From: Escherichia phage VEc74
DNA: 64,000 nucleotides
Strand: one strand, 5' to 3'
Sequence record: MT932213.1
A program made the translations under genes and the position numbers. The notes below the pieces were generated by a model. The model did no database searches. It was given only the letters and a program-made list of their open reading frames with translations, and had not been told where the DNA came from. Shown piece after piece: positions 14,881-54,296 of this stretch. Numbering within the stretch: the first letter of the stretch is position 1; every line of letters starts with the position of its first letter.

Positions 14881-14910
14881 ATTATACCATACTCATTTTG
14901 GAAAGTAAAC
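14881..14910 (-). promoter_or_regulatory. T4-type early promoter (part of a PeSL-like unit)
   Basis: GTTTAC, 17 bp, TGGTATAAT. Confidence 0.55.
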
Positions 14911-14924
14911 CGTTTAAATGAAAA

Positions 14925-14946
14925 AAGGACTCCCGAAGGAGTCCTT
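14925..14946 (-). terminator. rho-independent terminator after soc
   Basis: GGACUCC-UUCG-GGAGUCC hairpin followed by UUUUUU on the minus strand. Confidence 0.65.
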
Positions 14947-14950
14947 AAAT

Positions 14951-15196
14951 TTATTCACCAGTTACTTTCCACAAATCTTCATTTGCAGCAATCCATGCAG
15001 CACGTTGATTTTCTTCATATACTGTAGAATATGCTGCTTTTTCTGAAGGGAATATCTGGTAATGAGCACCAGAAATTTTGTGAACGTCAGAATAAAGAGG
15101 GAAAGCTACAGAAATTTCCTTTCCTTCAATTTTCTTATTTCCATCTAATTTCTGCTCAAATGTTTTGATATTAACATAACCGCGAGTACTAGCCAT
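14951..15196 (-). CDS. soc: small outer capsid protein Soc
   Basis: 81-aa ORF between the mod region and gene 56, with a late promoter and terminator. Confidence 0.75.
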   Translation of the reverse strand: MASTRGYVNIKTFEQKLDGNKKIEGKEISVAFPLYSDVHKISGAHYQIFPSEKAAYSTVYEENQRAAWIAANEDLWKVTGE

Positions 15197-15226
15197 GTAA
15201 TTCTCCTTTTATTTAAATTACATGAT

Positions 15227-15234
15227 TATTTATA
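15227..15234 (-). promoter_or_regulatory. late promoter (TATAAATA)
   Basis: exact TATAAATA on the minus strand about 30 nt upstream of the soc ATG. Confidence 0.6.
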
Positions 15235-15278
15235 ATAATTCTCACGGCTTTTAAGTCGTCGTTTAAATAAACGAGCTA

Positions 15279-15797
15279 TTAATAACCTCGGTCTTGACGT
15301 GCGAAATTTTCAGCATTTTTCAGGTAATAAAGTTTAAAGATTTCTTCAGCCGTAAGACCAAGACCTTGGAACATGTTCAGAACAAAATGGAGAATATCAA
15401 TCATTTCAAATTTAATTTCCAACTGGTCTTGTGGAGACAAATCAGTAATCAAAGTTTCACGGCGTTCACCATGCTGCGACTTCCAAGGTTTCCATACAGC
15501 AGATGCATCTTTTTCGCCGTTGCTCATACCACCAAGAGAAGTCAAAAGTTCGCGGAATTCATCATCAATATAATCTTTCTGATTGCGCAGCCAATCAACA
15601 ACTTCACCTGCAGTAGCCAAATCATCAGGATGACGGTTATATTCAGGTTTATCTTTAGCTAAACGAACCTGCAAAGATTTCTGCATATCAAGCATAACTT
15701 GCAGCGGGTCTTTTTCATCACCGAGAATATCCCAGTATTCATTTTGAGCTTTATCAGCGCCTTCGATCAATTGTGAACATTCATTAAAGTATGCCAT
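15279..15797 (-). CDS. 56: dCTPase/dCDPase gp56 (MazG-like)
   Basis: ORF starting MAYFNE at an internal ATG with an AAGGA RBS; the tracked N-terminal extension is hydrophobic and likely spurious. Confidence 0.7.
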   Translation of the reverse strand: MAYFNECSQLIEGADKAQNEYWDILGDEKDPLQVMLDMQKSLQVRLAKDKPEYNRHPDDLATAGEVVDWLRNQKDYIDDEFRELLTSLGGMSNGEKDASAVWKPWKSQHGERRETLITDLSPQDQLEIKFEMIDILHFVLNMFQGLGLTAEEIFKLYYLKNAENFARQDRGY

Positions 15798-15868
15798 TAT
15801 TTTTCCTTTCAATTCATGGATTAGTAGATTAATTATACAATAAATATATAAAGCAATAAGGAGGACAT

Positions 15869-16069
15869 ATGGTACAAAAATTAATGGCACTTGTTAATGC
15901 CATCAAAGGTAATAAAAAGCGTATAGCTTTTACTATTTCTGCTATGGTAGGAATTTTACTCTGGAACTTTATTTTATCACCTGTTGCAATTGCGCATGGT
16001 ATTAATATTCCAGTAGTTACTCTTGATACATTCGTAGATTTAGCATTTGCTTTAGTTGGGTTAATTTAA
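15869..16069 (+). CDS. small hydrophobic protein encoded on the opposite strand
   Basis: 66-aa ORF with two predicted TM segments, AAGGAGG SD before the ATG, no minus-strand ORF in the 56-61 intergenic interval. Confidence 0.35.
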   Translation: MVQKLMALVNAIKGNKKRIAFTISAMVGILLWNFILSPVAIAHGINIPVVTLDTFVDLAFALVGLI

Positions 16070-17094
16070 ATCTTAGCATATTTAGATAACCGCATTTTAG
16101 CCATCAACCCCTGGGCAATATTATTTTTCATATATTCCATAATTTGTTCAGGGGTTGCACCTTCCTTTCTAATCATATCATTAACATCTTTTGATTTCCA
16201 GGGAGATTTATCCCAAAACATAACCCTTTCTCCTGCATCAACTAATTTAGTCATTCGCTTAATAGTGTCAGGATGACGAGGTTCATTATCTAAAACCCAC
16301 ACTCGTCTATCTTTAAATGGAACAATTTCTAGGTCTAATTGACCACCCGTAATAGCTATACCATTTTCAATAAAAAGTGAATCTATAGGTCCTTCTAGAA
16401 CATATACATCGCCATCTTTAACTCGTTCGACTCCATAGATTTTTGTTGCCTCAGGATAAGCTTTGATGGTGATATATTTTTGAGGAGCATCTTTCTTTAA
16501 TGCACGTCCTTGAAAAGACTCAGCTTTTCCACTAGCATTATAAATTGGAATAACGAGACGAGGCTCAGGTATTTCCTTTTTATATGTTCCCGGTGCTATG
16601 CTATTAACTAATTTAGGCCATTCAGTTGTAAACCAAAGATATTTCCATTTATCCTTTGGAATACAACGAGCTTTTACGTATTTTATAATTGGATGGTCTT
16701 CCGTCAGTTTATCTAATCTAACACATGACGGAAGAGATTTAATTATTTTCTTCTCAGGTTGTTTAGGAAGTTCTTTAGGTTTTTCTACTGGACGACTTTT
16801 ACCTTTTTCTTTTCTTATTTCAAAGATATACTCACGATATAAATCAGGTTCAAACTCCTTTAAATATATTCCGATTGGTGCATGATAGTTACAGTTATAA
16901 CAATGAATATTTCCTTCATTATTATCACCATAATACCATCCACGAGCTTTATTCTGGTCGGTTTTTGAATCTCCACAAACAGGGCATCTAAACCGTAATT
17001 TAAAAGTTGAACTATTATTTACTTGTGTGAATTTAGGTAAATGAGCTAATGCACGATACGCAAACTCATTATCAATCCAAGGTATTGATGACAT
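16066..17094 (-). CDS. 61: DNA primase gp61
   Basis: 342-aa ORF with an N-terminal zinc ribbon (CPVCGDS...HCYNC) and a TOPRIM-like core. Confidence 0.85.
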   Translation of the reverse strand: MSSIPWIDNEFAYRALAHLPKFTQVNNSSTFKLRFRCPVCGDSKTDQNKARGWYYGDNNEGNIHCYNCNYHAPIGIYLKEFEPDLYREYIFEIRKEKGKSRPVEKPKELPKQPEKKIIKSLPSCVRLDKLTEDHPIIKYVKARCIPKDKWKYLWFTTEWPKLVNSIAPGTYKKEIPEPRLVIPIYNASGKAESFQGRALKKDAPQKYITIKAYPEATKIYGVERVKDGDVYVLEGPIDSLFIENGIAITGGQLDLEIVPFKDRRVWVLDNEPRHPDTIKRMTKLVDAGERVMFWDKSPWKSKDVNDMIRKEGATPEQIMEYMKNNIAQGLMAKMRLSKYAKI

Positions 17095-17096
17095 TT

Positions 17097-17261
17097 TTAC
17101 TCTTCTTTTTCTTTAGATTCCTCTTTTTTCTTTTTAGGAATCTGTTCAGGACCTTTATTTACTACAGCGCCTGACGTTGTTCCGGTAGAGATATTTTCAG
17201 GATTACCACCTGAATCTCCAGCGACCATATCTTCTTTGATAAATTCTTTATATGTTTTCAT
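17097..17261 (-). CDS. small protein with a capsid-targeting-sequence-like N-terminus
   Basis: 54-aa ORF MKTYKEFIKE..., GAGG RBS, start abuts the stop of the upstream gene; hand-translated and below the ORF-track cutoff. Confidence 0.4.
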   Translation of the reverse strand: MKTYKEFIKEDMVAGDSGGNPENISTGTTSGAVVNKGPEQIPKKKKEESKEKEE

Positions 17262-17262
17262 A

Positions 17263-17889
17263 TTAACCTCTATTCATAAAAGCATTAAAAATTTGGTCAT
17301 CAATAGAAACATTTACTTTAGACTGTTTTTCTGATGGTAATTCATATCCACATATTACAATTTTGTGATCAATATCAAAATACACAGAAGCAATATGATT
17401 AATGATGTTTTCAGTAAAGTCTAAATCAACATCAATATCTTTTTGACCACAGCCCAAAGGATAAATAATGCGAGTAATTCGATTATCTTTAACAAAGATT
17501 CCACCGACATACTCTGTGCTGCGTTTAAAGTCTACACGCCGACGAAATGAAAAATATTCAGGCTCTTTATGAGCTCGGCTCATAGGGCACAACGAATAAC
17601 TAGAATAAGAGATGTCAAATCCTACGCCTTCAATATGAACTAAATTGTCATGATTAAACCAATTATAATCATATGCCAAGTCCATTAGATTGTCATATGT
17701 GAAAGGCACCGGATTAACATCATTGGTCACAAGCATATAATTGGCAACTGCTATAATTTCATTATTTTTAACGAATACAAACCGTGATTGATGCGAATGA
17801 CCTGGACCTGCGTTTTCACGATTAATGATATAACACTGGGCACCTTTATATTTGTACGTGTCTTTACACTTGTGCATTTGATAAAGCAT
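17263..17889 (-). CDS. hypothetical protein (61.1/61.2 position)
   Basis: 208-aa ORF. Confidence 0.5.
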   Translation of the reverse strand: MLYQMHKCKDTYKYKGAQCYIINRENAGPGHSHQSRFVFVKNNEIIAVANYMLVTNDVNPVPFTYDNLMDLAYDYNWFNHDNLVHIEGVGFDISYSSYSLCPMSRAHKEPEYFSFRRRVDFKRSTEYVGGIFVKDNRITRIIYPLGCGQKDIDVDLDFTENIINHIASVYFDIDHKIVICGYELPSEKQSKVNVSIDDQIFNAFMNRG

Positions 17890-18182
17890 TATTCACCTAC
17901 TACTTCAGCGATGATATTTTTATTATTGAAGTTTTTATCGCAATACAGAACATAATTATACTGCATTACACCACCAGACTTAAGTTGTTTTTGCACTTCA
18001 GCTTTCATTTCAGGACGATCGCGCTCAACGATATTCATAATATCTGCTTCAATTTGAGTTTCAACCTCAGTCTGATCAGCAGTCATAGACCATTCGCACA
18101 AATCTTTATCATAACCTGCCATAGCAGGCTGAGCAGCACAAGAAGCTAAAGCAAAAATTGTAGCAAAGATAAATTTTTTCAT
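17889..18182 (-). CDS. sp: Spackle periplasmic protein (superinfection exclusion)
   Basis: 97-aa ORF with a signal peptide at the 61.3 position; T4 Sp is 97 aa. Confidence 0.6.
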   Translation of the reverse strand: MKKFIFATIFALASCAAQPAMAGYDKDLCEWSMTADQTEVETQIEADIMNIVERDRPEMKAEVQKQLKSGGVMQYNYVLYCDKNFNNKNIIAEVVGE

Positions 18183-18210
18183 GATAATCTCCTCAGTAGT
18201 TTATGTTTAT

Positions 18211-18240
18211 ATAGTATCTCAATTTCCAATAAAAGTAAAC
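18211..18240 (-). promoter_or_regulatory. T4-type early promoter
   Basis: GTTTAC, 17 bp, TACTAT. Confidence 0.5.
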
Positions 18241-18242
18241 AG

Positions 18243-18684: not shown

Positions 18685-18713
18685 AACAATCTCCTCATTT
18701 AACCAACAAGACT

Positions 18714-18743
18714 ACTATACCATAGTCTTGTCAGCTTGTAAAC
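18714..18743 (-). promoter_or_regulatory. T4-type early promoter
   Basis: GTTTAC, 17 bp, TGGTATAGT; the -35 overlaps the gene 41 stop codon. Confidence 0.5.
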
Positions 18744-20524: not shown

Positions 20525-21698
20525 TAAATTCTTCCATATCACTTAACTGTTCGAGGTCAGTTTCTAAATCAGCTGCTGATTTACTTTTACTTTCTGGAGA
20601 TTTAAATTTTTCAACCTTTGAGTTAATCAATTCATCAACTTCAGCTTCAACAATTTCATTACTATCAATAGCACCTAACTGATAAGCACGTTTAATAGCA
20701 TCTCGGAATGGTTGATGCTTAAATAAAGGCCCCCAGAATGTAGTGCAGTTAGTATCTTTTGCACGCCAAGATTTTTCTTCGCGAATCATCTCGCCGGTTT
20801 CTTCATCAAGAAATTCACGAGCATACCAACCATTCTTAGGTTTTACTACAAATCCTAATTCTAGAGCCATATCTAACAATCCAGAATAAGGATCGATACC
20901 ACCGTCAAATTTAACATCAATAAAGAATTTACTTTTTTCTTTAACTGTACGAGATTTTTCTACATTTAGAACAAATTGATACCCCTGAAGATCAGAACCA
21001 TCTTTAATTTGACGCTTACCGATAATGAATACGGTATCAGCCGAATACATTACGCCTGTACCACCTGTCATCACGGTTTTACTGAACATTTCAATGGTTT
21101 CAATTGTATGGTTAACCGCGACGCACGGAATATTTTTAATGCTAAAATAAGGAGTAACAATACGGAATAATGACTTCAGTGATTTAGCACGAGTCATATC
21201 TGCCACAGATTTTTCATTCAAGGCATCTTCCGTTTCTTTCTTAGAAGCCATATTACCGATTGAGTCGATGAATACAATAACTTTTTCACCGCGCTCAATA
21301 GCTTCAAGCTGATTCACCATATCAATTTTCAGTTGTTCAACTGACTGGATTGGCGTATGAATTACTCGTTCCGGGTCAACTCCCATAGATCGCAAATAAG
21401 CTGGAGTGATACCAAATTCGCTATCATAGAATAGACAAACCGCGTCAGGATATTTGTTCAAATACGCCGCAACCATAGTCAAAGACATATTTGATTTAAA
21501 GTGTTTAGAAGGACCTGCAAAAATGGTTAAACCAGACTGCATACCGCCATCAATCGCACCGGAAATAGCGATATTAAGCATTGGAATTTTAGTACGAATT
21601 ACATCCTTTTCATTAAAGAATTTAGATGTAGTCAGTTCAGCAGTCATTTTAGAAGTGGAAGCTTTAATCAAACGGGATTTTAAATCTGCAATAGACAT
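20517..21698 (-). CDS. uvsX: UvsX recombinase (RecA-like)
   Basis: 393-aa ORF, clearly T4-UvsX-like over the N-terminal region but not identical. Confidence 0.9.
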   Translation of the reverse strand: MSIADLKSRLIKASTSKMTAELTTSKFFNEKDVIRTKIPMLNIAISGAIDGGMQSGLTIFAGPSKHFKSNMSLTMVAAYLNKYPDAVCLFYDSEFGITPAYLRSMGVDPERVIHTPIQSVEQLKIDMVNQLEAIERGEKVIVFIDSIGNMASKKETEDALNEKSVADMTRAKSLKSLFRIVTPYFSIKNIPCVAVNHTIETIEMFSKTVMTGGTGVMYSADTVFIIGKRQIKDGSDLQGYQFVLNVEKSRTVKEKSKFFIDVKFDGGIDPYSGLLDMALELGFVVKPKNGWYAREFLDEETGEMIREEKSWRAKDTNCTTFWGPLFKHQPFRDAIKRAYQLGAIDSNEIVEAEVDELINSKVEKFKSPESKSKSAADLETDLEQLSDMEEFNE

Positions 21699-21775
21699 TC
21701 ATTTTTTCCATAGGCATCATTATATTTTCCTCACTGGTTAAAGATAGAGTAATTATAACACAATAAATTTAGGCA

Positions 21776-22624
21776 TTAATCAACTGCTATTGGATGAATA
21801 GCATTAAACTTATGAAATGCTTCTGATTTTTCTTTACGCGAAACACACATGCGAAGAACCTTTAATGGCTCGTCTTCTTCACCCAACGATTTTCGTTTTT
21901 CAATATTCGATGTTTTCCAACGAGCTTGCTCTGGAAACTCTCTATTGATTTGCTCAAGCGCTCTATTATGTTTAGAATTACTACGAATTGAACTGCACCC
22001 ACCAGGAGCTTGTGCTTTTCCAGATACAACCAGATATTTGAACAAGGCCAAATGCGGATAACCTTGATTAATTAAATTGAGAAATGCATACATATCTTCA
22101 CATAAATCAATTTTTCCATACCCAATTTGTTCTGTCGTAAGTTTTCCGAGGTCATACCATGTATTCGTGAATCCATATGAATTTTCACGATAATTACCCC
22201 AAGATGAAGTAATTTTAAAAATAGGTAGACGAGCATGGCCATGATAATACCCACAATCCATGGCATCTTCAACGTATTGAATCAATTCATAGAACTGTTC
22301 ACGAGTTAATTGATTGACTTTATCTACGCAACGCCGATCATCTCTTTTTCGCATTGAACTCATACGAATAGTAGTATCATCGTCAATCATCCAAATTCGT
22401 TGACCTGCATACATATCAGTAATTGCTTTACGAGTTCCAGCAATTCCGTTTACATCATCAGGAATAGTTATAATTTTAGCTCTAGACCCATAGGCATCAT
22501 AATAAGCTTTTTCTTCATGTTCACGCACTACAATATGCGGTTCATAATCAGTCGGAAACATATCAAGGGCAGAAACTGCCCCGACACGCTGATAACTTGG
22601 AATTACGAATTGAATCATTTCCAC
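21776..22624 (-). CDS. putative DNA (hydroxymethylcytosine) glycosyltransferase at the beta-gt locus
   Basis: 282-aa ORF with a DDD (DxD-like) motif, between uvsX and gene 42 where T4 encodes beta-gt. Confidence 0.4.
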   Translation of the reverse strand: MEMIQFVIPSYQRVGAVSALDMFPTDYEPHIVVREHEEKAYYDAYGSRAKIITIPDDVNGIAGTRKAITDMYAGQRIWMIDDDTTIRMSSMRKRDDRRCVDKVNQLTREQFYELIQYVEDAMDCGYYHGHARLPIFKITSSWGNYRENSYGFTNTWYDLGKLTTEQIGYGKIDLCEDMYAFLNLINQGYPHLALFKYLVVSGKAQAPGGCSSIRSNSKHNRALEQINREFPEQARWKTSNIEKRKSLGEEDEPLKVLRMCVSRKEKSEAFHKFNAIHPIAVD

Positions 22625-23355
22625 TCACCTTTATAGTCTTTTTTCACAATATGAGTTTCGCCAGTATTCCACCAATGATCAACCAAGTAAAAATGACGAG
22701 AATATACATGAAGACTTCCAACATTCCATATAATAGAACCTGCTTTATACTGACGAGTTGAATCGCCTGCATTCAAATCAGATACTAATTTATCTAATAC
22801 GTATTTTTGCCATGCATAATCATTACGGAATCCGAAGACCACGTCATTTGAGCGCATGCTTACTACTGCATTGACTTTCTTATCACGAATCAGGTATTGT
22901 ACTGTATTAGTACACATGAAATCTGACATACCATCTTTATTGTAGTCAAATTGCATGGATGGACGAGTATAAATCATGATACCACGTCGAGAATCAGGAT
23001 TTTGACCAAGTTCAGCTAAACACATATCATACTGAGCATAGTTATCTTCTGACCAGATAGCCCAACCATAATTCGAGTTAATTTCACCTTTAGAAGATGC
23101 TACTTGTTGCCAAATCTTCGGTGTTTCACCCGGAATATCTTTAACGAACAAGCTTTTAGATTTATACCATTCAAGTTCACGCTGAATGTATTCATCATTA
23201 AGAGCGCCAAAAATAAACGGTTCATCTGCTACAAATGATGCGCCAATAATTTCAATAGTTTTAACGCCGGTTTTATCAACTACGAAATCTTTTTCCTTTA
23301 ATGCAAGTCCCAAATGAAGACGGATTTCTTCAACTGTCATAGAGTCACTAATCAT
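22615..23355 (-). CDS. 42: dCMP hydroxymethylase gp42
   Basis: 246-aa thymidylate-synthase-fold ORF; T4 gp42 is 246 aa. Confidence 0.9.
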   Translation of the reverse strand: MISDSMTVEEIRLHLGLALKEKDFVVDKTGVKTIEIIGASFVADEPFIFGALNDEYIQRELEWYKSKSLFVKDIPGETPKIWQQVASSKGEINSNYGWAIWSEDNYAQYDMCLAELGQNPDSRRGIMIYTRPSMQFDYNKDGMSDFMCTNTVQYLIRDKKVNAVVSMRSNDVVFGFRNDYAWQKYVLDKLVSDLNAGDSTRQYKAGSIIWNVGSLHVYSRHFYLVDHWWNTGETHIVKKDYKGEWK

Positions 23356-23767: not shown

Positions 23768-24148
23768 TCACTTAGTCAAATTTTTTACGCATGAATTATA
23801 AGAATTCACTACATACTCCATCGGAGCATTTTTACCAGTACGCCATTGGTAATTATTAGCCCAATTAGCCCAAATTTCGGCGCAGTAGTTTTCAATTTTT
23901 TCTTCGCGTGTAATTACATCCGAATTACGATATGCTTGAGCAGATTCATCTGGACGAATAGCTTCGTCAAAATTCGCCTGCATTTGTTCTACTGTTTGCT
24001 TTGGAGCTTCTTTATAACACTTGACATTAGGATTATAAAATTTGCTTGAACAGTTTACAATTTTTCCTACATCAGACTGATTTACTACCGGTCCTTGAGC
24101 TACACAACCAGTAAGACCTAATGCAATAACCAAAATAGCGATTTTCAT
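23768..24148 (-). CDS. predicted lipoprotein
   Basis: signal peptide with lipobox (LTGC); start taken at the ATG, the tracked start is a TTG. Confidence 0.5.
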   Translation of the reverse strand: MKIAILVIALGLTGCVAQGPVVNQSDVGKIVNCSSKFYNPNVKCYKEAPKQTVEQMQANFDEAIRPDESAQAYRNSDVITREEKIENYCAEIWANWANNYQWRTGKNAPMEYVVNSYNSCVKNLTK

Positions 24149-24182: not shown

Positions 24183-24212
24183 ATAGTACCATGGAAGAAC
24201 AGTCTTGTAAAC
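24183..24212 (-). promoter_or_regulatory. T4-type early promoter (part of a PeSL-like unit)
   Basis: GTTTAC, 17 bp, TGGTACTAT, plus an A/T-rich upstream element. Confidence 0.55.
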
Positions 24213-24295
24213 AGTTTTGTGAAAAATTTTTTAGGGAATTCTAAAGGTCCAGAATCATCTGTTTTTCATAAGTATAGATTTATATTACTTGTATG

Positions 24296-24320
24296 AAAAA
24301 GGGACCCGGAGGTCCCTAGA
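24296..24320 (-). terminator. rho-independent terminator after gene 43
   Basis: GGGACC-UCCG-GGUCCC hairpin followed by UUUUU. Confidence 0.6.
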
Positions 24321-33759: not shown

Positions 33760-34960
33760 ATTTTGTAATAATGTCAAACTGCTCTTTAAAGCAGAAGCTT
33801 GAATCTTGATGCTGATACAAAAATTCATAAGCTTTTTCGCGTTCACGGTCATAAAGAGCTCGGTCAGATGACAGTTCTTTAATACGTTCAAATGTTGATT
33901 CCATGTCATTTTCATCAAACCAAACGATACCGCTATCGTGCGAAATTAATGGAGTATTATCAACACGGAATTTTAAATTTTCGCCAGTAGATTTCCAAAA
34001 TACTGGAATTGTTCCACATGCACCAAGCTCGAGATGAGTATATTCTAAAGAACGCTGTAGATATTTTTTATCTAATTTACTCAGCTGATAACCAAATCCG
34101 GATTTACTCATGCGTTCAAGCATTTCGCTATTTACATAACGGTCGAGAATTTGCGTCGGCAAATTAGGAGCAATTTTAATTTGGTCTACTTGATGAAGAC
34201 GATAATACTCGTATGGAATTCCTTTTTCTTTAATAGGAATGAACGCTGGAGAACGTTCCAGACCTTCCATAATAGTACTTAGTCCTGCAGGTTTAAGATG
34301 TTTTTCGTGAAAATCAAACATCTGATAAAAGCCTTTCCATGTAGTAGTACGACCAATCCAACGATTGATATTCATGTTAATTTCAGAAACATCTTTCCAG
34401 TAGGTTGATCGAACCTTCGCAATATCCATGGGAGGCTGAAAGTTATATACGGTCGGTGCTTCTTCAATATCATCAAATAGAGAAACAGTTTCCGGATACC
34501 ATTCTTTCATCAGAACTTTATTAAAATCACCATTATCAGAATGGCTAAAAATAACATCAGCCCGACGAACAGTTTCTTCTAATCCCAAATTTCGACGCAA
34601 AGAAAGAGAAGAATGGTCATGCTGATAAACTACAACACGAACCGAAGGTTTAATGTTATCAATAATTTTTTTATAGTTATTAATGGTGTCTTCTTCAACT
34701 GAAGTAGCAGGAACTGAATTGATAACTAGAATATCACAATCATTTACCAGCTTAAGCGTTTTATCGTATTCTTTTGCCAATAAAACCGGAATTGAAAATG
34801 ATTTATAATCATGCGCGCAATTACGAGTAAATGATTTATCTTTAGCATAAACCAAAGTTACTTCATGACCATTTTTAATAAACCAATCACGCTGCTCAAG
34901 AGAAAATTTAGTTACACCGCAACCTTCAAGACCTCGAGCCATAAAAATGCATACTTTCAT
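33758..34960 (-). CDS. agt: DNA alpha-glucosyltransferase
   Basis: 400-aa ORF; length and position (between 47 and 55) match T4 alpha-gt. Confidence 0.8.
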   Translation of the reverse strand: MKVCIFMARGLEGCGVTKFSLEQRDWFIKNGHEVTLVYAKDKSFTRNCAHDYKSFSIPVLLAKEYDKTLKLVNDCDILVINSVPATSVEEDTINNYKKIIDNIKPSVRVVVYQHDHSSLSLRRNLGLEETVRRADVIFSHSDNGDFNKVLMKEWYPETVSLFDDIEEAPTVYNFQPPMDIAKVRSTYWKDVSEINMNINRWIGRTTTWKGFYQMFDFHEKHLKPAGLSTIMEGLERSPAFIPIKEKGIPYEYYRLHQVDQIKIAPNLPTQILDRYVNSEMLERMSKSGFGYQLSKLDKKYLQRSLEYTHLELGACGTIPVFWKSTGENLKFRVDNTPLISHDSGIVWFDENDMESTFERIKELSSDRALYDREREKAYEFLYQHQDSSFCFKEQFDIITK

Positions 34961-34984
34961 TTAATATCCTCATTGTTTTGGTTT

Positions 34985-35009
34985 ATTTTACCAAAAATTT
35001 ATAAAGCAA
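34985..35009 (-). promoter_or_regulatory. middle-promoter candidate (MotA box TTGCTTTA, TAAAAT)
   Basis: box and -10 correctly spaced, about 25 nt upstream of the alpha-gt ATG. Confidence 0.3.
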
Positions 35010-35026
35010 TATAGGAGCCGAGGCTC

Positions 35027-35200
35027 CTATCCGCATAATACGCCATACAGAGGCTCATTAGAGCTTCTAAATTTTATGCGCTTATATGTTATAGTTCCTT
35101 CTGCTTTAGCTTTATCGTGAGCCTCTTTAAAGCGTCTCATCATTTCTACTTTAGAGGAACGAATTTTATTATAATCTATTTCAGAAGTCTGGGTGTTCAT
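35027..35200 (-). CDS. small basic protein
   Basis: 57-aa ORF, hand-translated; its stop overlaps a GGAGC/GCUCC hairpin. Confidence 0.35.
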   Translation of the reverse strand: MNTQTSEIDYNKIRSSKVEMMRRFKEAHDKAKAEGTITYKRIKFRSSNEPLYGVLCG

Positions 35201-36534: not shown

Positions 36535-36804
36535 CTATCTAAGTAAACAGTATGCTTGGAATACTTTCTCCATCATCTTTTTAAATTCATGAATATCTAT
36601 ATAATGACTAGTTAAATCAGCATGATATAAAAAGTCTAAAAACTTTTCATGTGTGCTAACATATTCGCTTTCATTTAATTCAGAAACATGGCTTTCCCAA
36701 TATCCAACACCAGTCTTATTTGGGAAAAATGAAATTTTCATGTATTGGTCAACATAGAAAATGCCATAATTTTCAATAGTAATAGAAATATTAATAAATT
36801 TCAT
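36535..36804 (-). CDS. hypothetical protein
   Basis: 89-aa ORF. Confidence 0.4.
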   Translation of the reverse strand: MKFINISITIENYGIFYVDQYMKISFFPNKTGVGYWESHVSELNESEYVSTHEKFLDFLYHADLTSHYIDIHEFKKMMEKVFQAYCLLR

Positions 36805-37737: not shown

Positions 37738-38031
37738 TCAGCTGTAACGATAACACTCGTTTGATTTACGTTTAGCAACTCGTTGAGAAGTATTATAATC
37801 AAAATCATCGTCAATGTAAACTGATTTTTTCAACTTTCTCACTTCGCCGCGTAATTGACGATTTAACTCATCTTTAACTTCTGAATCAATGCCTTTCATT
37901 CTACGCCATTTATCTGAGCGAAAAATGTTTTCAACCATATCTTTATGACTTACACCATCAGGAGCTTTACGCTTTCCGAAATAGTCATAATCACGCACTT
38001 TTAAGTCTTTACGACGATACGTTTTACCCAT
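37738..38031 (-). CDS. hypothetical basic protein
   Basis: ORF starting at the internal ATG (MGKTYRR); the ATG overlaps the stop of the upstream small ORF. Confidence 0.4.
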   Translation of the reverse strand: MGKTYRRKDLKVRDYDYFGKRKAPDGVSHKDMVENIFRSDKWRRMKGIDSEVKDELNRQLRGEVRKLKKSVYIDDDFDYNTSQRVAKRKSNECYRYS

Positions 38032-38200
38032 GGAGTTTAATTTCCTTAGCAACTGAACTAAATACAGCACGATCACAAATCATACGTTTGTTCCATTTAA
38101 TCACAGTATAATGAACATCTAGATCATCGACTGCTGTAACAATAACGATATGTCCGTTAACACGATAATACTGGTCAATTTTAATCTCTTTATCAACCAT
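38024..38200 (-). CDS. small hypothetical protein
   Basis: 58-aa ORF downstream of an early promoter; hand-translated. Confidence 0.35.
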   Translation of the reverse strand: MVDKEIKIDQYYRVNGHIVIVTAVDDLDVHYTVIKWNKRMICDRAVFSSVAKEIKLHG

Positions 38201-38230: not shown

Positions 38231-38260
38231 ATAATACCACGGTTTGAACTTGTTGTAAAC
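38231..38260 (-). promoter_or_regulatory. T4-type early promoter (part of a PeSL-like unit)
   Basis: GTTTAC, 17 bp, TGGTATTAT with an A/T-rich upstream element. Confidence 0.55.
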
Positions 38261-38340
38261 AACTTTGTGAAAAATATTTTAGGGAATGATAAGAAAGGAA
38301 CGATAGCTTAGAATGGTAATATACAGAATGTGAGAAAGAA

Positions 38341-38356
38341 AGGCCCAGAGGGCCAG
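38341..38356 (-). terminator. GC hairpin (GGCCC-UCU-GGGCC) followed by a UUUCUUUC tract
   Basis: inverted repeat directly 3' of the nrdH-like stop. Confidence 0.5.
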
Positions 38357-39298: not shown

Positions 39299-39769
39299 TT
39301 AATCATGTTTCCACACCCCATCGGTATTTGACCAAAGTCGCTGATTATCTGATCCTCGCCACAGCTTTTTAGTCGGAAGATTTTTCTCATACTTCCCATC
39401 AATAATAACATCAACATATTTAAGCATTTCTAGTTGTTTAATATCTTCAAATTTATATCCTGTCCACAACCAAATGCTTTTATTGGGATAAAGATTTTTT
39501 ACTGTTTGAACGATGCAATGAATAACATCTCGGTTATCAGGATAGAGAGGGTCTCCTCCAGTTATAGTTAATCCTTCTATATAATCATTATTCAAACATT
39601 CAATTAATTGTTCTAGTGTTTCACCAGTGAATGGAATACCATTTCTAGCATTCCATGTTGATTTATTATAACACCCTTCACATTTATGCAAACAACCTGT
39701 AACGAAAAGAACGACCCTGCAACCAGGGCCATTCACAAAATCGCAAGGATAAAATCTATCATAATTCAT
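39299..39769 (-). CDS. nrdG: anaerobic ribonucleotide reductase activating protein NrdG (radical SAM)
   Basis: 156-aa ORF with a CxxxCxxC cluster (CLHKCEGC). Confidence 0.9.
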   Translation of the reverse strand: MNYDRFYPCDFVNGPGCRVVLFVTGCLHKCEGCYNKSTWNARNGIPFTGETLEQLIECLNNDYIEGLTITGGDPLYPDNRDVIHCIVQTVKNLYPNKSIWLWTGYKFEDIKQLEMLKYVDVIIDGKYEKNLPTKKLWRGSDNQRLWSNTDGVWKHD

Positions 39770-41583
39770 TGGTGTTTAACCCTATGCATGATTTCTTTAT
39801 TTTTGCCGAGATTAAATCCACGTTCGTTCGGATTTCCCAAATAACCACATGTTCTTCTTATGGTATTCATCTTTTTAGGATCAGTTTCTCCACAAATAGA
39901 ACAAACAAATCCGTTTTCAGTAGGAGTCATTTCATGGGTACTTCCACATGTAAAACATTTATCCACTGGCATATTAACACCAAAATAATCTAAATGTTGT
40001 GCAGCATAATCCCATACGGCCTCAAGACCTTTCAAGTTATTTTTCATATCAGGAAGTTCAACATAAGAAATGTGACCACCTGTCGCAATGAAATGATATG
40101 GCGCTTCACGAGAAATCTTTTCAAACGGAGTAATATTTTCTTCTACTGAAACATGGAAACTGTTAGTGTACCAGCCTTTATCGGTAACATCTTTTACACT
40201 TCCATATTTTTCTGTATCAAGTTTACAGAAGCGATAACAAAGGTTTTCAGCAGGAGTCGAATATAAACTAAAAGCAAATCCGGTTCTTTCAGTCCACTGT
40301 TTAAGATGAGCATTCATTTTAGTTAAAATTTCTCGTCCAATATCACGACCGGCAAGAATATTCAATTCGTGAATACCAATGTATCCTAAAGACACTGAAC
40401 TTCTGCCGTTTTTAAATAACTCAATTATATCGTCATCAGGTTTAAGACGAACCCCGAATGCACCTTCTTGATAAAGAATAGGAGCAACAGTAGCTTTAAC
40501 TCCTTTTAAGGAACTAATTCTACACATCAAAGCTTCAAAACATAAATCCATTCGCTCATTGAACAATTCGATAAATTTCTGTTCATTGAACTGTGTTCCA
40601 ATATAAGAATCTAATGCGATACGAGGAAGATTCAGTGTTACAACACCAAGATTATTACGTCCATCAAGAATTTCATTACCGGTTGAATCTTTCCACACAC
40701 CCAAGAAACTGCGGCAACCCATTGGAGAAACAGGAATAGATGAGCCGGTGATAGCTTTATTGTTCTTAGCTGAAATAATATCAGGATACATTCTTTTGCT
40801 TGCGCACTCTAGAGCAAGCTGCTTAATATCATAGTTCGGATCGTCTTTATAAAGATTAACACCTTCTTCAACAAACATAACAAGCTTAGGGAAAATAGGA
40901 GTTATCCCATCACGACCAAGACCTTTAATACGATTTTTCAGAATTGCTTTCTGAATCATTCGTTCAGTCCAGTCAGTTCCCGTACCAAATGTAATTGTTA
41001 CAAAAGGCGTTTGTCCGTTTGAACTAAAGAGAGTGTTTACTTCATATTCATAAGCTTGAAATGCATCGTATACGTCTTTTTCTGTTTTAGATTGAGCATA
41101 ATTCAACGCATCAGCGATTTGCCATTTTTCTGCATCCTCAATATGTTTTGCATAGGTGCGTTTAACATAAGGAGAAAGTACTTTATCTACATTCGCAAAA
41201 GTCGTTCCGCCGTATTGGTGAGAAGCAACCTGTGCAGTAATTTGTGCCATAATTGCAGTAGCAACACCGATTGATTTAGGAGTTTCAATCTGTGCATTAC
41301 CAAGCTTAAATCCATTCTCAAGCATTCCTTTTAAATCTACTAAACAACAATTAGTAAATGGAAGAGCAGGGGAATAATCAATATCGTGGAAATGGATAAT
41401 TCCGCTTTCATGCGCTTTCATAATAAAAGACGGGACCATATTTTTGGCAATGTGTTTAGACACAATACCAGCCATAAGGTCCCGTTGAGTTGGAAAAACA
41501 CGAGAATCTTTATTAGCATTCTCGTTTAAAAGGTCTTTATTAGTTTTATGAATCAATCCTTCAATTTCTTTTTCAATTGTCAT
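39766..41583 (-). CDS. nrdD: anaerobic ribonucleoside-triphosphate reductase NrdD
   Basis: 605-aa ORF with a C-terminal zinc ribbon and glycyl-radical region; T4 NrdD is 605 aa. Confidence 0.9.
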   Translation of the reverse strand: MTIEKEIEGLIHKTNKDLLNENANKDSRVFPTQRDLMAGIVSKHIAKNMVPSFIMKAHESGIIHFHDIDYSPALPFTNCCLVDLKGMLENGFKLGNAQIETPKSIGVATAIMAQITAQVASHQYGGTTFANVDKVLSPYVKRTYAKHIEDAEKWQIADALNYAQSKTEKDVYDAFQAYEYEVNTLFSSNGQTPFVTITFGTGTDWTERMIQKAILKNRIKGLGRDGITPIFPKLVMFVEEGVNLYKDDPNYDIKQLALECASKRMYPDIISAKNNKAITGSSIPVSPMGCRSFLGVWKDSTGNEILDGRNNLGVVTLNLPRIALDSYIGTQFNEQKFIELFNERMDLCFEALMCRISSLKGVKATVAPILYQEGAFGVRLKPDDDIIELFKNGRSSVSLGYIGIHELNILAGRDIGREILTKMNAHLKQWTERTGFAFSLYSTPAENLCYRFCKLDTEKYGSVKDVTDKGWYTNSFHVSVEENITPFEKISREAPYHFIATGGHISYVELPDMKNNLKGLEAVWDYAAQHLDYFGVNMPVDKCFTCGSTHEMTPTENGFVCSICGETDPKKMNTIRRTCGYLGNPNERGFNLGKNKEIMHRVKHQ

Positions 41584-46237: not shown

Positions 46238-46267
46238 ATTATACCACATCCTTGTGGCAAAGTAAAC
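46238..46267 (-). promoter_or_regulatory. T4-type early promoter
   Basis: GTTTAC, 17 bp, TGGTATAAT; near-identical to the promoter at 2418-2447. Confidence 0.6.
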
Positions 46268-49177: not shown

Positions 49178-49205
49178 TTTGTGTTCCTCCGTAGTTGATA
49201 GTTGT

Positions 49206-49235: not shown

Positions 49236-49237
49236 CA

Positions 49238-49641: not shown

Positions 49642-50610
49642 TTATTTCAGAAGAGTAACCTCAGCAATTTCTTCCCAACCGTTTTTGTCGGTCATAATAA
49701 AGTCAGCAAGATAAAGAGCAGTACGCAGTGAAACATTGCGTAAACGGTTAACATTGACTTTCATCCATGATAATGCTTTATAAGTTTCTTCATCAGAAAG
49801 ACCGCGCTTTTGCATCATGTCGGTTGAAAGAATAACATCTTCAACCCTGACCATAATTTCTTCATTAGTGTGAACACCCAAATCCAAATAAACTGAGCGG
49901 GACACTAATGCTTGTAAATGTGGAGCAAGTTTAGTACCACGGTCTAATTCGCGGTCAATATCAACGTTTGTGATAAAAACAATCGTTCCTTTAAATTCAA
50001 ACTCACGGTCAATGCCTTTTTCTTCTAAGTAAGAAGATGCAGTGCTCCAGCAGACTTTACGGGTCTCTCCAGTGTCCAGAGCAGCTTTCAGAAGATTAAG
50101 AATGTCCATATCAGAGAAAACATCCACATCATCAATCAAAAGGACAGAATTCTCTTCACGATTATTCCAAAGCTGCTCATAAAGACCGATACCCGAGATT
50201 TTACCATTGATGCTTTTATATTCAATGTATCCAATATCATTTGCTTTATTCAAAGCTTTATCTAAAGAATACGTTTTACCAATACCTGCTGCTCCCGAGA
50301 TAATTAATGAACGAATGTTTCCGTTAATAATACCATTCGTCATCATTCCCATAACATTAAATCTTTTATTAATGCGGGTTTTCATATCTTCATATGATTC
50401 TTTAACTTCTTCAACTTTTACACCATCATATGAAATGTCTGATTTGTAAACCCAAACACCGCGACGTTTACCATCAATTTCAACAAAAACTTTACCATCT
50501 CCTTGTGCATCTACCGGAGCATTATCTGGGAACCATTCGCCTAAGAGCTCAAAAGTTCCAGAGATTTCTTTACCGAAGTAGATACCCTTATTGATAGTTA
50601 CAGTTTTCAT
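49642..50610 (-). CDS. AAA+/P-loop ATPase
   Basis: Walker A GAAGIGKT and Walker B VLLIDDVD; start at the ATG (MKTVTI), the tracked start is a TTG. Confidence 0.6.
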   Translation of the reverse strand: MKTVTINKGIYFGKEISGTFELLGEWFPDNAPVDAQGDGKVFVEIDGKRRGVWVYKSDISYDGVKVEEVKESYEDMKTRINKRFNVMGMMTNGIINGNIRSLIISGAAGIGKTYSLDKALNKANDIGYIEYKSINGKISGIGLYEQLWNNREENSVLLIDDVDVFSDMDILNLLKAALDTGETRKVCWSTASSYLEEKGIDREFEFKGTIVFITNVDIDRELDRGTKLAPHLQALVSRSVYLDLGVHTNEEIMVRVEDVILSTDMMQKRGLSDEETYKALSWMKVNVNRLRNVSLRTALYLADFIMTDKNGWEEIAEVTLLK

Positions 50611-50644
50611 TTTATTCTCCAAATCTGTATCAGTTGATAGTTGT

Positions 50645-50674
50645 ATAGTACCATAAAGCTTTATGCTTGTAAAC
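50645..50674 (-). promoter_or_regulatory. T4-type early promoter (part of a PeSL-like unit)
   Basis: GTTTAC, 17 bp, TGGTACTAT. Confidence 0.55.
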
Positions 50675-50699
50675 AGTTTTGTGAAAAATTTTTGAAATA

Positions 50700-50722
50700 A
50701 AAAAAGGAGCCCGAAGGCTCCC
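50700..50722 (-). terminator. rho-independent terminator
   Basis: GGAGCC-UUCG-GGCUCC hairpin followed by a run of 7 U. Confidence 0.6.
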
Positions 50723-50724
50723 TA

Positions 50725-51738: not shown

Positions 51739-52196
51739 TCAGCCTTATATTCAATAACAGGACATACTTTAGCTTTACGAGCTTTTAAAAATTCGACGAT
51801 AATCGATTTCTTGGGTTGAATAGGAGGTAAACCTTTATACGCCCTATCAATATTTTCTACGTGTAAAGCATAATCCTTTTTCCATTTATAGTCTTTATAT
51901 TTTTCATGCAAATGTGCAGGAATAACAAATGAACCGATAATAAGTAAAACAACCAAAAGCGCAAGTATAAATGCCGATGGAAGAAGAGTCCATAAACTAC
52001 CGAAAATAAGCCAACGTTGTAGGCTTTCTGCACAAATAATTGTTAGCCCTACGAGTATAGCACACCCAAAAATAGAAACGAAAAATGTAGGAATGGCAAT
52101 AGACCAAAAATATGCGCATAGTGTCTTAGGTCGTTGCCATTCATCGTTAAACAATTTGAATAATTTATAGTGCCAAGAGTTTTCATTAATAATCAT
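51735..52196 (-). CDS. membrane protein
   Basis: 153-aa ORF with three or four hydrophobic segments; ATGATGA overlap with the nucleotidyltransferase start. Confidence 0.5.
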   Translation of the reverse strand: MIINENSWHYKLFKLFNDEWQRPKTLCAYFWSIAIPTFFVSIFGCAILVGLTIICAESLQRWLIFGSLWTLLPSAFILALLVVLLIIGSFVIPAHLHEKYKDYKWKKDYALHVENIDRAYKGLPPIQPKKSIIVEFLKARKAKVCPVIEYKAE

Positions 52197-52198
52197 AA

Positions 52199-52720
52199 TT
52201 ATCCTTTCATTGAAGGCGTAACGGTTGTTAAATACTTAATCATAGCTTCAGCTTCTGATTTTGATAATGAAATTTCTCCATTGTTTTGACGAATAGAAAT
52301 AAAATCCGGATGACGGTCACCACCAGCTTTTAAAACACACATATAAGTATCAGTTTCATCTTCAATATCTGAAATGATTGAAGCAGTTCCACACGAATGT
52401 GGTTTTTGATAAATCAATACAGCTTTTCTTCCACCGTTTGACTGTTCATAAACTTTTAACACATCAAACAAATCACTTCTTTTATCAATAGCTAAGATGT
52501 TGTTTTCATCTTCAATATTAAATCCTTCGGATACTTCATAAAGTGTCACCCATAAATCACCTATATCGATAGTAGCATTTTCCTTTCCATGACTTTCAAG
52601 AGCATGACAAATTTTCTTAATTTCGTCATAACTCATTTTAATAATATCATCTCCTTGACTAAGGAAGATGTCATTTTTAAATTCAACACGAATTAAACCG
52701 CTTCCACTTGAAATAAACAT
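52199..52720 (-). CDS. hypothetical protein (paralog pair, member 1)
   Basis: 173-aa ORF; C-terminus resembles that of the next ORF. Confidence 0.5.
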   Translation of the reverse strand: MFISSGSGLIRVEFKNDIFLSQGDDIIKMSYDEIKKICHALESHGKENATIDIGDLWVTLYEVSEGFNIEDENNILAIDKRSDLFDVLKVYEQSNGGRKAVLIYQKPHSCGTASIISDIEDETDTYMCVLKAGGDRHPDFISIRQNNGEISLSKSEAEAMIKYLTTVTPSMKG

Positions 52721-52726
52721 ATTTCC

Positions 52727-53260
52727 TCACTTTGAAATCATAGTTGGAATAACAGAATCAAGATAAGTTTTTAGTGCAATAGCTTCGTCTTTGTTTAATG
52801 TAATGATATGTGATCGAAAATCGTCAATTTGACGAATAGATACTATATTTCCCTCTTCATAGCATTTTGACACATTTAAAATAGTTTCATCATTATGATT
52901 ACAGGAGTTAGTAATAATAGCATTACATTTTTTAAACCATTTTAAATTATGTTTTATTTTAGTAGAATCATAAAAATATTTAATGTTAGTTATAAAATTA
53001 TCCCAATTATTAATTGATAAGCACATTGACTCGCTTTTAATATTAAATCCTGGGCATGAAGAATAAAAATGAATTTTATGCTCATCATTAATGCTTACAA
53101 TTTTATCAGTGTAAGCATATTCAATTTGGGTTAAACGAACAATTTCGCTAAGCGTAAAATATAACATGTCATCTTCTTGCGTCAAACGATACATGTTATT
53201 TACTTTTTCTATAGCCAATTCACCAAAAAGTGGACTAACTTCTAATACTAATCGTTTCAT
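52727..53260 (-). CDS. hypothetical protein (paralog pair, member 2)
   Basis: ORF from the ATG (MKRLVLEV); C-terminal similarity to 52199-52720. Confidence 0.5.
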   Translation of the reverse strand: MKRLVLEVSPLFGELAIEKVNNMYRLTQEDDMLYFTLSEIVRLTQIEYAYTDKIVSINDEHKIHFYSSCPGFNIKSESMCLSINNWDNFITNIKYFYDSTKIKHNLKWFKKCNAIITNSCNHNDETILNVSKCYEEGNIVSIRQIDDFRSHIITLNKDEAIALKTYLDSVIPTMISK

Positions 53261-53419
53261 ATTGATTCTCTTCGACTCGCTCACAATTACATACTCCTTT
53301 GAATAATATCAATAATGTTGTTCACCAAATTATAAGTAAACATTGGGTAATTATATTGAATCATCACATACACAACAAACAAAACTTTCATTCTCTTCTC
53401 CTTGGCAGTTGACAAGATT

Positions 53420-53449
53420 ACTATACCATAACCTTGCCAACTTGTAAAC
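53420..53449 (-). promoter_or_regulatory. T4-type early promoter
   Basis: GTTTAC, 17 bp, TGGTATAGT. Confidence 0.5.
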
Positions 53450-53451
53450 CA

Positions 53452-53625
53452 TTAAATGACGTTTTCAATAAAATTCTGAAGCTTTGTGTGAGCATCAACC
53501 ATGATTTTCATTTCTTCTTTGGCGAAAGCTGTACCTCTTTCCCGAGAAGAATATTCATAGTCAGAAACTGCATTAGCATATTCTTCAATTAGCTTCATTA
53601 AAAACATCTGCTTTTCAGTTTTCAT
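53452..53625 (-). CDS. small hypothetical protein
   Basis: 57-aa ORF with a GGTGG RBS; hand-translated. Confidence 0.3.
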   Translation of the reverse strand: MKTEKQMFLMKLIEEYANAVSDYEYSSRERGTAFAKEEMKIMVDAHTKLQNFIENVI

Positions 53626-53809
53626 TATTCCACCTAATCATTTCAAGATATTGAACTAACTTAGCTTTAGATTTGTCCAAATCCTTTTTAGTTGCTTCTA
53701 TACCGTCGTATGAATATCCTTCACAATGCTCAACTGCCAATTGATATGAATCTATTTCAATATCACGTGCTAATTTAATGATTTTTTCAAACTGTTCACG
53801 TGTTAGCAT
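53615..53809 (-). CDS. hypothetical protein
   Basis: 64-aa ORF. Confidence 0.4.
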   Translation of the reverse strand: MLTREQFEKIIKLARDIEIDSYQLAVEHCEGYSYDGIEATKKDLDKSKAKLVQYLEMIRWNNEN

Positions 53810-53811
53810 AC

Positions 53812-54015
53812 TTAAACTCTCGTATTATGATCGATAATTTCATCAAGAAACATATCTAACGCTTCTAAAGCATTATCCACTTTAGTTTCAAAGTCTTTAA
53901 TGCCTTTATTCGAAATACCCGATGAATACCAAGCAAAGTCAATCAGCTCTTCATCTGCTTTACGAATTAAAGCTACCAATTCCTTAATTTTATCCGCTTG
54001 TTCGATACTAATCAT
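53812..54015 (-). CDS. hypothetical protein
   Basis: ORF from the internal ATG (MISIEQ). Confidence 0.4.
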   Translation of the reverse strand: MISIEQADKIKELVALIRKADEELIDFAWYSSGISNKGIKDFETKVDNALEALDMFLDEIIDHNTRV

Positions 54016-54203
54016 TATTCCACCACATATGAAAGAGAGAATATTGCACACGCCATGTGAGTTGCAACTTCATCACACATATTATAACGTTTCTTGAGAA
54101 GTTCTACAAGTTCTTCACTAGTAACTTCATCCATGTCGACGAAAAAATCACCATTAATGATGACGTAGATATTTCCTTCTTGATTAAGTGCTTCAATTTT
54201 CAT
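54015..54203 (-). CDS. hypothetical protein
   Basis: ORF from the ATG (MKIEALN) with an AAGAGGAG RBS. Confidence 0.4.
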
Positions 54204-54231
54204 GATGTTCTCCTCTTTATCCGATGGTTGT

Positions 54232-54261
54232 ATAGTACCACAGCTCAAACGGAAAGTAAAC
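54232..54261 (-). promoter_or_regulatory. T4-type early promoter (part of a PeSL-like unit)
   Basis: GTTTAC, 17 bp, TGGTACTAT. Confidence 0.55.
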
Positions 54262-54271
54262 CGGTAAAATG

Positions 54272-54296
54272 AAAAAAGTCTCCCGAAGGAGACTAA
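54272..54296 (-). terminator. rho-independent terminator
   Basis: GUCUCC-UUCG-GGAGAC hairpin followed by UUUUUU. Confidence 0.6.

Follow-up and report, generated by a model that had tools for sequence, protein, structure and literature searches.

Hairpin and early-promoter boundaries in a Tequatrovirus genome segment are probably inherited T4 elements rather than marks of recent gene acquisition

Introduction

Are the places in T4-like phage genomes where a GC-rich hairpin precedes an early promoter the marks of recently acquired genes, or are they ordinary boundaries between transcription units? This question is raised by five sites in a 64,000-nucleotide stretch of Escherichia phage VEc74 (MT932213.1), the whole of which is herein called the window. 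The sites, numbered 1 to 5, are located at 14881-14946, 24183-24320, 38231-38356, 50645-50722 and 54232-54296. An original prediction, made from the sequence, described these sites as repeated units resembling the promoter-early-stem-loop (PeSL) mobile regulatory cassettes of T4-type phages and considered the genes directly downstream as candidates for recently shuffled modules. The results of the present study suggest that the five sites are very probably vertically inherited transcription-unit boundaries of a T4-like genome, i.e. orthologs of T4 elements, and not signs of recent acquisition.

Results

Conservation of the five junctions

The window is a segment of a Tequatrovirus (T4-like coliphage). 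A 20-kb query matched approximately 500 genomes at 95-99% identity, and the closest genomes by this query, FL33, fPS-90 and PST, were each approximately 97% identical (96.8% for PST). The window begins at rIIA, and essentially all of its genes are on the minus strand, on which the anatomy of all sites is read herein. When the window was aligned with the annotations of T4 and PST, sites 1 to 5 fell at the junctions soc/mrh.2, gene 43/imm.1, nrdH/55.6, nrdC.11/nrdC.10 and rI.-1/mobD.5, respectively (rI.-1 at the fifth junction is mobD.6 by an alternative name). All five junctions were orthologous to the T4 and PST intergenic sequences, with 92-99% identity and the same flanking genes; the promoters of sites 1 and 3 were 92-96% and 95-96% identical to their orthologs. 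A junction was considered colinear when a query of approximately 0.9-1.4 kb spanning it was covered to at least 80% in one place of a phage record. Colinear records numbered 492 for soc/mrh.2 (query extending through mrh.1), 496 for the flanks of gene 43/imm.1, 504 for nrdH/55.6, 764 for nrdC.11/nrdC.10 (other genera included) and 498 for rI.-1/mobD.5, a set that comprises essentially every Tequatrovirus in the collection. In view of this orthology with T4 and PST and of the colinearity in 492-764 records, the downstream genes are not recent insertions, and the proposal that these genes were recently shuffled is contradicted by this synteny comparison.

The composite layout was also observed outside the genus. 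After soc in Mosigvirus MM02, the layout is retained with a compensatory C:G to A:T change in the stem and an unchanged UUCG loop, and after the rI.-1 homolog in Moonvirus Merlin, a wholly different stem with the same UUCG loop and a T-tract is followed by GTTTAC...TGATACTAT. Clustering of insertions and deletions at the five units was considered and rejected: among 23 indels between the window and T4 plus PST, none was located within 320 bp of the -35 element of any of the five units, and the nearest was 324 bp away. The T4-specific insertions were mostly homing-endonuclease genes or the nrdD intron, and only 3 of the 23 indels abutted any early promoter, one of these being an internal gene deletion.

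Structure of the five sites

A hairpin with a U-tract followed by an early promoter was found at each of the predicted positions on the minus strand, and the order of elements was the same at all five: upstream stop codon, GC hairpin, T-rich tail, early promoter, Shine-Dalgarno sequence and ATG. The hairpins begin 2-13 nt after the stop codon and fold with -10.8 to -15 kcal/mol (z = -3.1 to -4.5 against dinucleotide shuffles). The site 1 hairpin, after soc (14925-14946), reads AAGGACTCC-TTCG-GGAGTCCTT (RNA AAGGACUCC-UUCG-GGAGUCCUU) and is followed by UUUUUCAUUU (-15 kcal/mol, z -4.5). After gene 43, site 2 (24300-24317) has AGGGACC-UCCG-GGUCCCU and then UUUUCAUA (-13.9 kcal/mol, z -3.5), and after nrdH, site 3 (38342-38354) has GGCCC-UCU-GGGCC and then UUUCUUUCUC (-12.3 kcal/mol including an outer helix, z -3.5). 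Site 4, after nrdC.11 (50704-50723), has GGGAGCC-UUCG-GGCUCC followed by UUUUUUUAUUU (-14.6 kcal/mol, z -3.1), and site 5, after rI.-1 (54277-54294), has AGUCUCC-UUCG-GGAGACU followed, as at site 1, by UUUUUCAUUU (-10.8 kcal/mol, z -4.4). The UUCG or UCCG loops expected at every site were thus observed at sites 1, 2, 4 and 5, where 5-7 of the first 8 nt 3' of the stem are T, but not at site 3, which is the weakest terminator candidate of the five because of its UCU triloop and the interrupted U-tract. By the features of Rho-independent terminators (GC stem, short loop, U-tract, position after a stop codon), the hairpins are clear candidates at sites 1, 2, 4 and 5 and a weak one at site 3. Terminators have been predicted by other annotators at the same junctions in related phages, and intergenic regions of T4 contain UUCG-tetraloop terminators (PMC1702504). 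No Rfam 15 family matched either strand of the whole window at the gathering score.

The early promoters of T4 consist of UP, -35, TGn and -10 elements, with GTTTAC at -36 to -31 (PMC2988021; PMC1524935). The five sites show the features of this class, namely GTTTAC, a TGn-extended -10, a UP-like A/T tract, additional consensus positions and orientation towards an early gene. The promoter of site 1 (14881-14910) is GTTTACT, a 14-nt spacer and TGGTATAAT, while the -10 sequence TGGTA(C/T)TAT, which the original prediction had given for all units, is present at the other four. These are site 2 (24183-24212; GTTTACA ... TGGTACTAT, with the A/T tract AAAAAATTTTTCACAAAACT upstream and the leader ACAACTATCAACTGATACGGATTTGGAGAATGAAATG downstream), site 3 (38231-38260; GTTTACA ... 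TGGTATTAT), site 4 (50645-50674; GTTTACA ... TGGTACTAT) and site 5 (54232-54261; GTTTACT ... TGGTACTAT). The pattern GTTTACW-N14-TGNTANNNT has 15 matches in the window, all on the minus strand and including all five sites, against 0.08 expected by chance. A stable hairpin with a T-tract within 130 nt upstream was observed for 5 of the 17 strong early-promoter motifs, precisely the five sites, and for none of the other 12. The distance from hairpin to -35 falls into two classes, 14-29 nt (sites 1, 4 and 5) and 81-87 nt (sites 2 and 3). For T4 itself, a figure legend in PMC1702504 assigns a primer-extension stop to the mobD.5 promoter; a literature search for T4 transcription-start or Term-seq papers yielded none.

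In early genes of T4, the Shine-Dalgarno sequence coincides in part with the consensus for cleavage by RegB/S1, GGAGAAUAAAA (PMC1702504). The GGAG leader matches this consensus exactly at nrdC.10, where the site 4 leader ends in GGAGAATAAAATG, and is one base off at imm.1.

Several further observations concern early promoters of the window generally. Spacers are nearly identical between rIIA.1 (2418-2447) and nrdC.4 (46238-46267), at 97% over 32 nt, and between dmd (18714-18743) and mobD.2a (53420-53449), at 87%. Stems occur in the spacer or over the -10 of some of these promoters (9 bp at dmd, 7 bp at rIIA.1). Stems of at least 8 bp overlapping the -10 or spacer were found at 3 of 18 early promoters against 2.9% of random windows, and such stems were rejected as a general feature of early promoters since this excess is only modest.

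All five downstream genes are on the minus strand: mrh.2 (14642-14854, 70 amino acids (aa)), which is served by the site 1 promoter; imm.1 (23768-24148, 126 aa), with the lipoprotein-type signal LTGC and the Pfam family DUF5481; 55.6 (38024-38200, 58 aa), after site 3; nrdC.10 (49642-50610, 322 aa), with weak AAA/STAND NTPase matches below the Pfam cut-offs; and mobD.5 (54015-54203, 62 aa), after site 5. The earlier descriptions of these genes, among them a lipoprotein and an AAA+ ATPase, agree with Pfam where it is informative, i.e. at imm.1 and, weakly, at nrdC.10. Upstream of site 4, nrdC.11 encodes an RlaP-type nucleotidyltransferase (Pfam).

Relationship among the five units

The five sites are not one repeat family, and extended homology is confined to two pairs, 1/5 and 2/4. 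The original prediction implied that the units resemble one another more than generic promoters do, and this was not observed: compared in register, the promoter cores of the five had an identity of 0.61 with one another and of 0.60 with those of the other 12 early promoters, for which the corresponding value among themselves was 0.59. Identity of the spacers within the five was, if anything, lower than among other early promoters. Apart from GTTTAC, the TGGTA..AT of the extended -10 and ATG, the only columns invariant across the five units are a few in the leader and the Shine-Dalgarno sequence. The direct-repeat families in the window correspond to sub-families of early promoters and include the hairpin-less nrdC.8, srd, dmd and rIIA.1 among their members.

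The homology of sites 1 and 5 takes in the hairpin and amounts to 78% identity over 108 nt. Between sites 2 and 4, it runs for approximately 90 nt from the UP-like tract to ATG at 84-86% identity, with different hairpins, and their leaders are 95% identical over 40 nt; part of this shared leader is explained by GGAGAAUAAAA, which is the RegB/S1 consensus. The orthologs in T4 and PST (92-99%) are far closer than these paralogs (78-86%), and therefore nothing indicates that one site was recently copied from another.

Alleles and cassettes in related phages

Two of the five junctions, gene 43/imm.1 and nrdC.11/nrdC.10, are polymorphic in the wider population, and the window carries the empty allele at both. 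In this part, the idea of genes shuffled next to such units holds for relatives, in which additional small open reading frame (ORF) cassettes bounded by early promoters are present at sites 2 and 4, but not for the window. At gene 43/imm.1, the empty allele of the window, T4 and PST is estimated for approximately 144 records (496 minus two ORF alleles), an allele with an 83-aa ORF (RB27, T2) was found in 31 records, and an allele with an unrelated 78-aa lipoprotein-like ORF (EC121, Kelasse) was found in 321. From the terminator to ACAACTATCAAC, promoter included, these three alleles have the same sequence, and they diverge directly thereafter, i.e. they share a left breakpoint in the leader. 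The imm.1 leader of the window corresponds to that of the 78-aa ORF, with the point of fusion at the 8-nt repeat ATGAAAAT. This fusion looks like a minihomology deletion, an event of which we infer the direction; minihomology deletions have been shown experimentally in T4 (PMC8262927).

Between nrdC.11 and nrdC.10, there are one, two or three promoter-led units in MLF4, SG1 and BYEP02: MLF4 carries a 66-aa ORF, SG1 carries a pair of ORFs of 49 and 87 aa (the latter DUF4031), and BYEP02 carries both. Cassettes at this junction were found in 140 and 162 records. In all three phages, the first unit after nrdC.11 uses the resident site 4 promoter, which is the point of cassette insertion, and a similar stem-bearing, promoter-like element stands ahead of nrdC.10. 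In SG1 and BYEP02, successive units are separated by a GTTTAC...TGATACTAT promoter whose -10 is covered by a stem and whose leader is CTATCAAAACAAA. The allele breakpoints at both polymorphic junctions fall directly after the -10, in CTATCAA. The promoter and leader sequence recurs at 4-8 places per record. No tblastn matches to the cassette ORFs RB27_048, MLF4 gp155, SG1 gp043 or gp044 were found elsewhere in the window, T4 or PST. The window allele of nrdC.11/nrdC.10 was also considered as a simple promoter-to-promoter deletion of the MLF4 allele, and this was rejected because the leader sequences do not fit. As a separate observation, the nrdC.11 terminator of BYEP02 (L008, approximately 680-700) has an inverted loop, GGGAGCC-CGAA-GGCTCCC, on the same stem as the window at 50704-50723.

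The 66-aa ORF cassette of MLF4 is 97.5% identical to a cassette of Mosigvirus APCEc01, where it resides at a different locus with unrelated flanks, a DUF7275/DUF7277 gene and a gene for a small, apparently membrane-associated protein, neither of which has a homolog in the window. The shared 358 bp extend from the UP/-35 region of one early promoter to the leader of the next, and the conserved neighbours nrdC.10 and nrdC.11 are only approximately 74-76% identical between these genera. This comparison of sequences is good evidence that cassettes bounded by early promoters move between loci and genera in relatives, as the PeSL model proposes.

Other differences from T4 and other elements of the window

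Several T4 insertions are missing from the window, namely the mobA region and the homing-endonuclease genes segF, segA, mobB, mobC and mobD; the nrdD intron with I-TevII and the dam methyltransferase gene are missing as well. Since the mobA region is missing, genes 60 and 39 form one ORF of 606 aa. The beta-glucosyltransferase region is replaced, as in PST. The places in the window with such insertion or replacement differences are 2447-4267, 15234-15858, 21686-22633, 34951-34976, 39749-41048 and 51739-52702.

A perfect 16-bp inverted repeat, TGCATCAGTAGTTGAT...ATCAACTACTGATGCA, brackets the -10 of an early-type promoter at 5801-6146 (minus strand), the -35 of which is degenerate. This promoter drives an 89-aa ORF (5801-6070) between motB and cef, which is intact in the window and approximately 260 records. 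T4 and PST carry an internal deletion of approximately 200 bp in this ORF, and therefore the motB-cef "intergenic" region of T4 is a gene remnant. The 200 bp specific to the window (5862-6063) were considered as a promoter-adjacent cassette, which was rejected since the difference is the internal gene deletion of T4 and PST and was not promoter-mediated. Another 89-aa ORF (DUF7200), at 36535-36804 between 55.1 and gene 55, is missing from T4 and PST (256-bp indel), and just downstream of it the two arms of an 8-bp inverted repeat, ATAGATCT...AGATCTAT, flank a -10-like box that precedes gene 55.

Two further hairpins were observed on the minus strand. At 34960-35030, between a-gt.2 and a-gt, the hairpin ATAGGAGC-CTCG-GCTCCTAT is followed by the MotA-box, middle-promoter-like sequence ATTGCTTTA-N11-TAAAAT, a "PmSL"-like layout; in T4, the homing-endonuclease gene mobB is inserted at this junction. 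At 39709-39734, inside the start of nrdG, the strong hairpin GAATGGCCCTGG-TTGC-AGGGTCGTTC has a T-tail followed by TTTGCA-N16-TGTTATAAT, and its position is the exact place of mobC in T4 and PST. Finally, a repeated 5' coding sequence, ATGAAAACATAT(C/A)AAGAATTTAT..., is present at 17231-17261, 60858-60888, 61531-61561 and 61865-61895. The encoded start, MKTY(Q/K)EFI..., is common to three ORFs of the internal-protein region and the 54-aa ORF 61.1, and it presumably resembles the capsid-targeting leader of the T4 internal proteins.

Discussion

How might these boundaries work? Herein, we propose that a Rho-independent terminator, formed by the hairpin and the U-tract, would stop or attenuate transcripts from soc (a late gene), gene 43 (replication), nrdH, nrdC.11 and rI.-1, and that 14-87 nt further on an early promoter of the T4 class would restart transcription through host sigma-70 RNA polymerase immediately after infection. 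The recruitment of this polymerase by UP/-35/TGn/-10 promoters is established for T4 (PMC2988021). The GGAG leader would then provide for the translation of mrh.2, imm.1, 55.6, nrdC.10 and mobD.5 and might permit inactivation by RegB where AAUAAAA follows. In the wider population, the promoter and leader, and not the hairpin, would be the repeated sequence where small ORF cassettes are gained, lost and swapped, most likely through ordinary homologous or minihomology recombination. With their many copies per genome, promoter and leader could offer homology and minihomology for UvsX-driven exchange.

Several points weigh against the interpretation of the five sites as inherited boundaries with these functions. 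The short stem and the broken U-tract of site 3 may bring about attenuation only. The pairs 1/5 and 2/4 are alike beyond what promoter function explains, which makes it likely that some units recombined or were duplicated in the past. Terminator and promoter activity in this phage is predicted from its sequence and by analogy with T4. In addition, from the available text of Comeau et al. 2014 (PMC4122927), we cannot confirm that exactly these five sites are on its list of PeSLs, and the GenBank record of PST holds coding-sequence features only, with no PeSL coordinates.

Could the five units nevertheless be copies of a mobile PeSL cassette whose downstream ORFs were horizontally acquired and recently shuffled? 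The composite layout matches PeSLs, two pairs of units share extended homology, and in relatives there is movement of cassettes with early promoters at their borders. However, this explanation is largely refuted and now highly improbable, since T4 and PST have all five junctions with the same downstream genes, approximately 500 or more records are colinear across them, nrdC.11/nrdC.10 is conserved beyond the genus, and the composite units after soc and rI.-1 are kept in other genera. The orthologs are also closer than the paralogs, and the core identity of the five is that of generic early promoters. Moreover, the members of the homologous pairs are separated by 26 and 39 kb of sequence with essential replication genes, such that excision between them would presumably be lethal. 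The opposite extreme is that selection for binding by RNA polymerase, the C-terminal domain of its alpha subunit, the ribosome and RegB/S1 made the units alike through pure functional convergence, with no role of the units in recombination or plasticity. Invariant columns confined to functional positions, the RegB/S1 site GGAGAAUAAAA in the leader, a UP-like tract, TTTTTCACAAA, that is also present at the hairpin-less srd, and the small share of indels abutting early promoters are all consistent with this idea. We nevertheless regard it as improbable, since the near-identical leaders of sites 2 and 4 include ACAACTATCAACTGATACRGATTT, which has no known binding role, the breakpoints of both polymorphic junctions coincide in CTATCAA, and the cross-genus 66-aa cassette ends inside promoters at both sides.

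A different alternative concerns the hairpins, which might mainly be stabilisers of mRNA 3' ends, processing barriers or read-through attenuators that stand beside promoters only for want of intergenic space. In favour of this alternative, hairpins with a UUCG tetraloop have unusual stability, and site 3 has no clean U-tract. The T-rich tails of the other four hairpins are instead the signature of intrinsic terminators, terminators are annotated at the same junctions in related phages, and the stem-loop of an RB49/phi1 PeSL lowered lacZ expression to an extent similar to that seen with the rrnB T1 terminator (PMC2839356); thus, a mainly stabilising role is unlikely. Going beyond vertical inheritance, the promoter and leader modules (GTTTAC...TGnTAnnnT followed by CTATCAA, frequently with a stem across the -10) might go further than passive homology and act as favoured joints, perhaps with the help of an enzyme, in an integron-like system that carries cassettes of small early ORFs between loci and genera. 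This idea is supported by the 66-aa cassette, which is 97.5% identical between MLF4 and APCEc01 within unrelated flanks, with homology that ends inside promoters and neighbours at approximately 74%; we consider it speculative and rather doubtful. If it were true, sites 2 and 4 of the window would be empty landing sites.

For the window, the sites are T4's own terminator/early-promoter boundaries, useful for the annotation of transcription units and not new. More generally, the Krisch laboratory has already proposed that regulatory punctuation serves in addition as recombination joints for swaps of small early genes, an idea that bears on the adaptation of T4-like phages to hosts and defences. 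The allele series at gene 43/imm.1 and nrdC.11/nrdC.10, together with the cross-genus 66-aa cassette, are clean examples from public data and might seed a population-scale test.

Comparison with known elements

The name PeSL was first given to composite terminator/promoter elements of RB49 and phi1 (Arbiol et al. 2010, PMC2839356). For the PST/T4 type, Comeau, Arbiol and Krisch (2014, PMC4122927) defined a stem-loop just upstream of TTTACW-N17-TAYWAT, followed by a Shine-Dalgarno sequence and ATG. The five sites fit this definition, and in this respect the proposed resemblance to PeSLs holds: the promoter pattern reads TTTACT..TATAAT, TTTACA..TACTAT, TTTACA..TATTAT, TTTACA..TACTAT and TTTACT..TACTAT at sites 1 to 5, and the -35 of every site is preceded by a hairpin at a distance of 14-87 nt. 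The stem consensus AGNA-loop-TCNT, which its authors called frequent and not universal, is represented by AGGA...TCCT at site 1, while the stems of sites 2, 4 and 5 are related but different and that of site 3 is unlike it. Like PST/T4-type PeSLs, the window units have the stem-loop upstream of the early promoter, an AT-rich upstream tract, and the Shine-Dalgarno sequence and ATG at the 3' end, and in relatives indels or ORF swaps adjoin two of the units, with one cassette bounded by two promoter elements. Unlike PeSLs, which are conserved over approximately 100 bp as substrates for homologous recombination, the five units are not a well-conserved repeat family of that length, which only the pairs 1/5 and 2/4 attain. 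Their neighbours in the window are conserved genes and not variable ORFans, although allelic variation exists at the junctions of sites 2 and 4 in the wider population. The stem also differs in position from that of the RB49/phi1 PeSLs, being upstream of the promoter at all five sites and not mostly inside or over it. The layout itself is already known, since it has been published under the name of PeSLs for the pair PST and T4, of which PST is a near-identical genome (PMC4122927).

The two halves of each unit likewise have counterparts in T4. The C(UUCG)G tetraloop terminators of its intercistronic regions were reportedly described by Tuerk et al. in 1988. The window hairpins resemble these intrinsic terminators (PMC1702504) in the GC stem, the UUCG or UCCG loop at four of five sites, the U-tract and the position directly after a stop codon, and only site 3, with its triloop and interrupted tract, departs from them. 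Compared with the early promoters of T4 (Hinton 2010, PMC2988021; Nolan et al. 2006, PMC1524935), the promoters of the five sites are T4 elements with nothing materially different.

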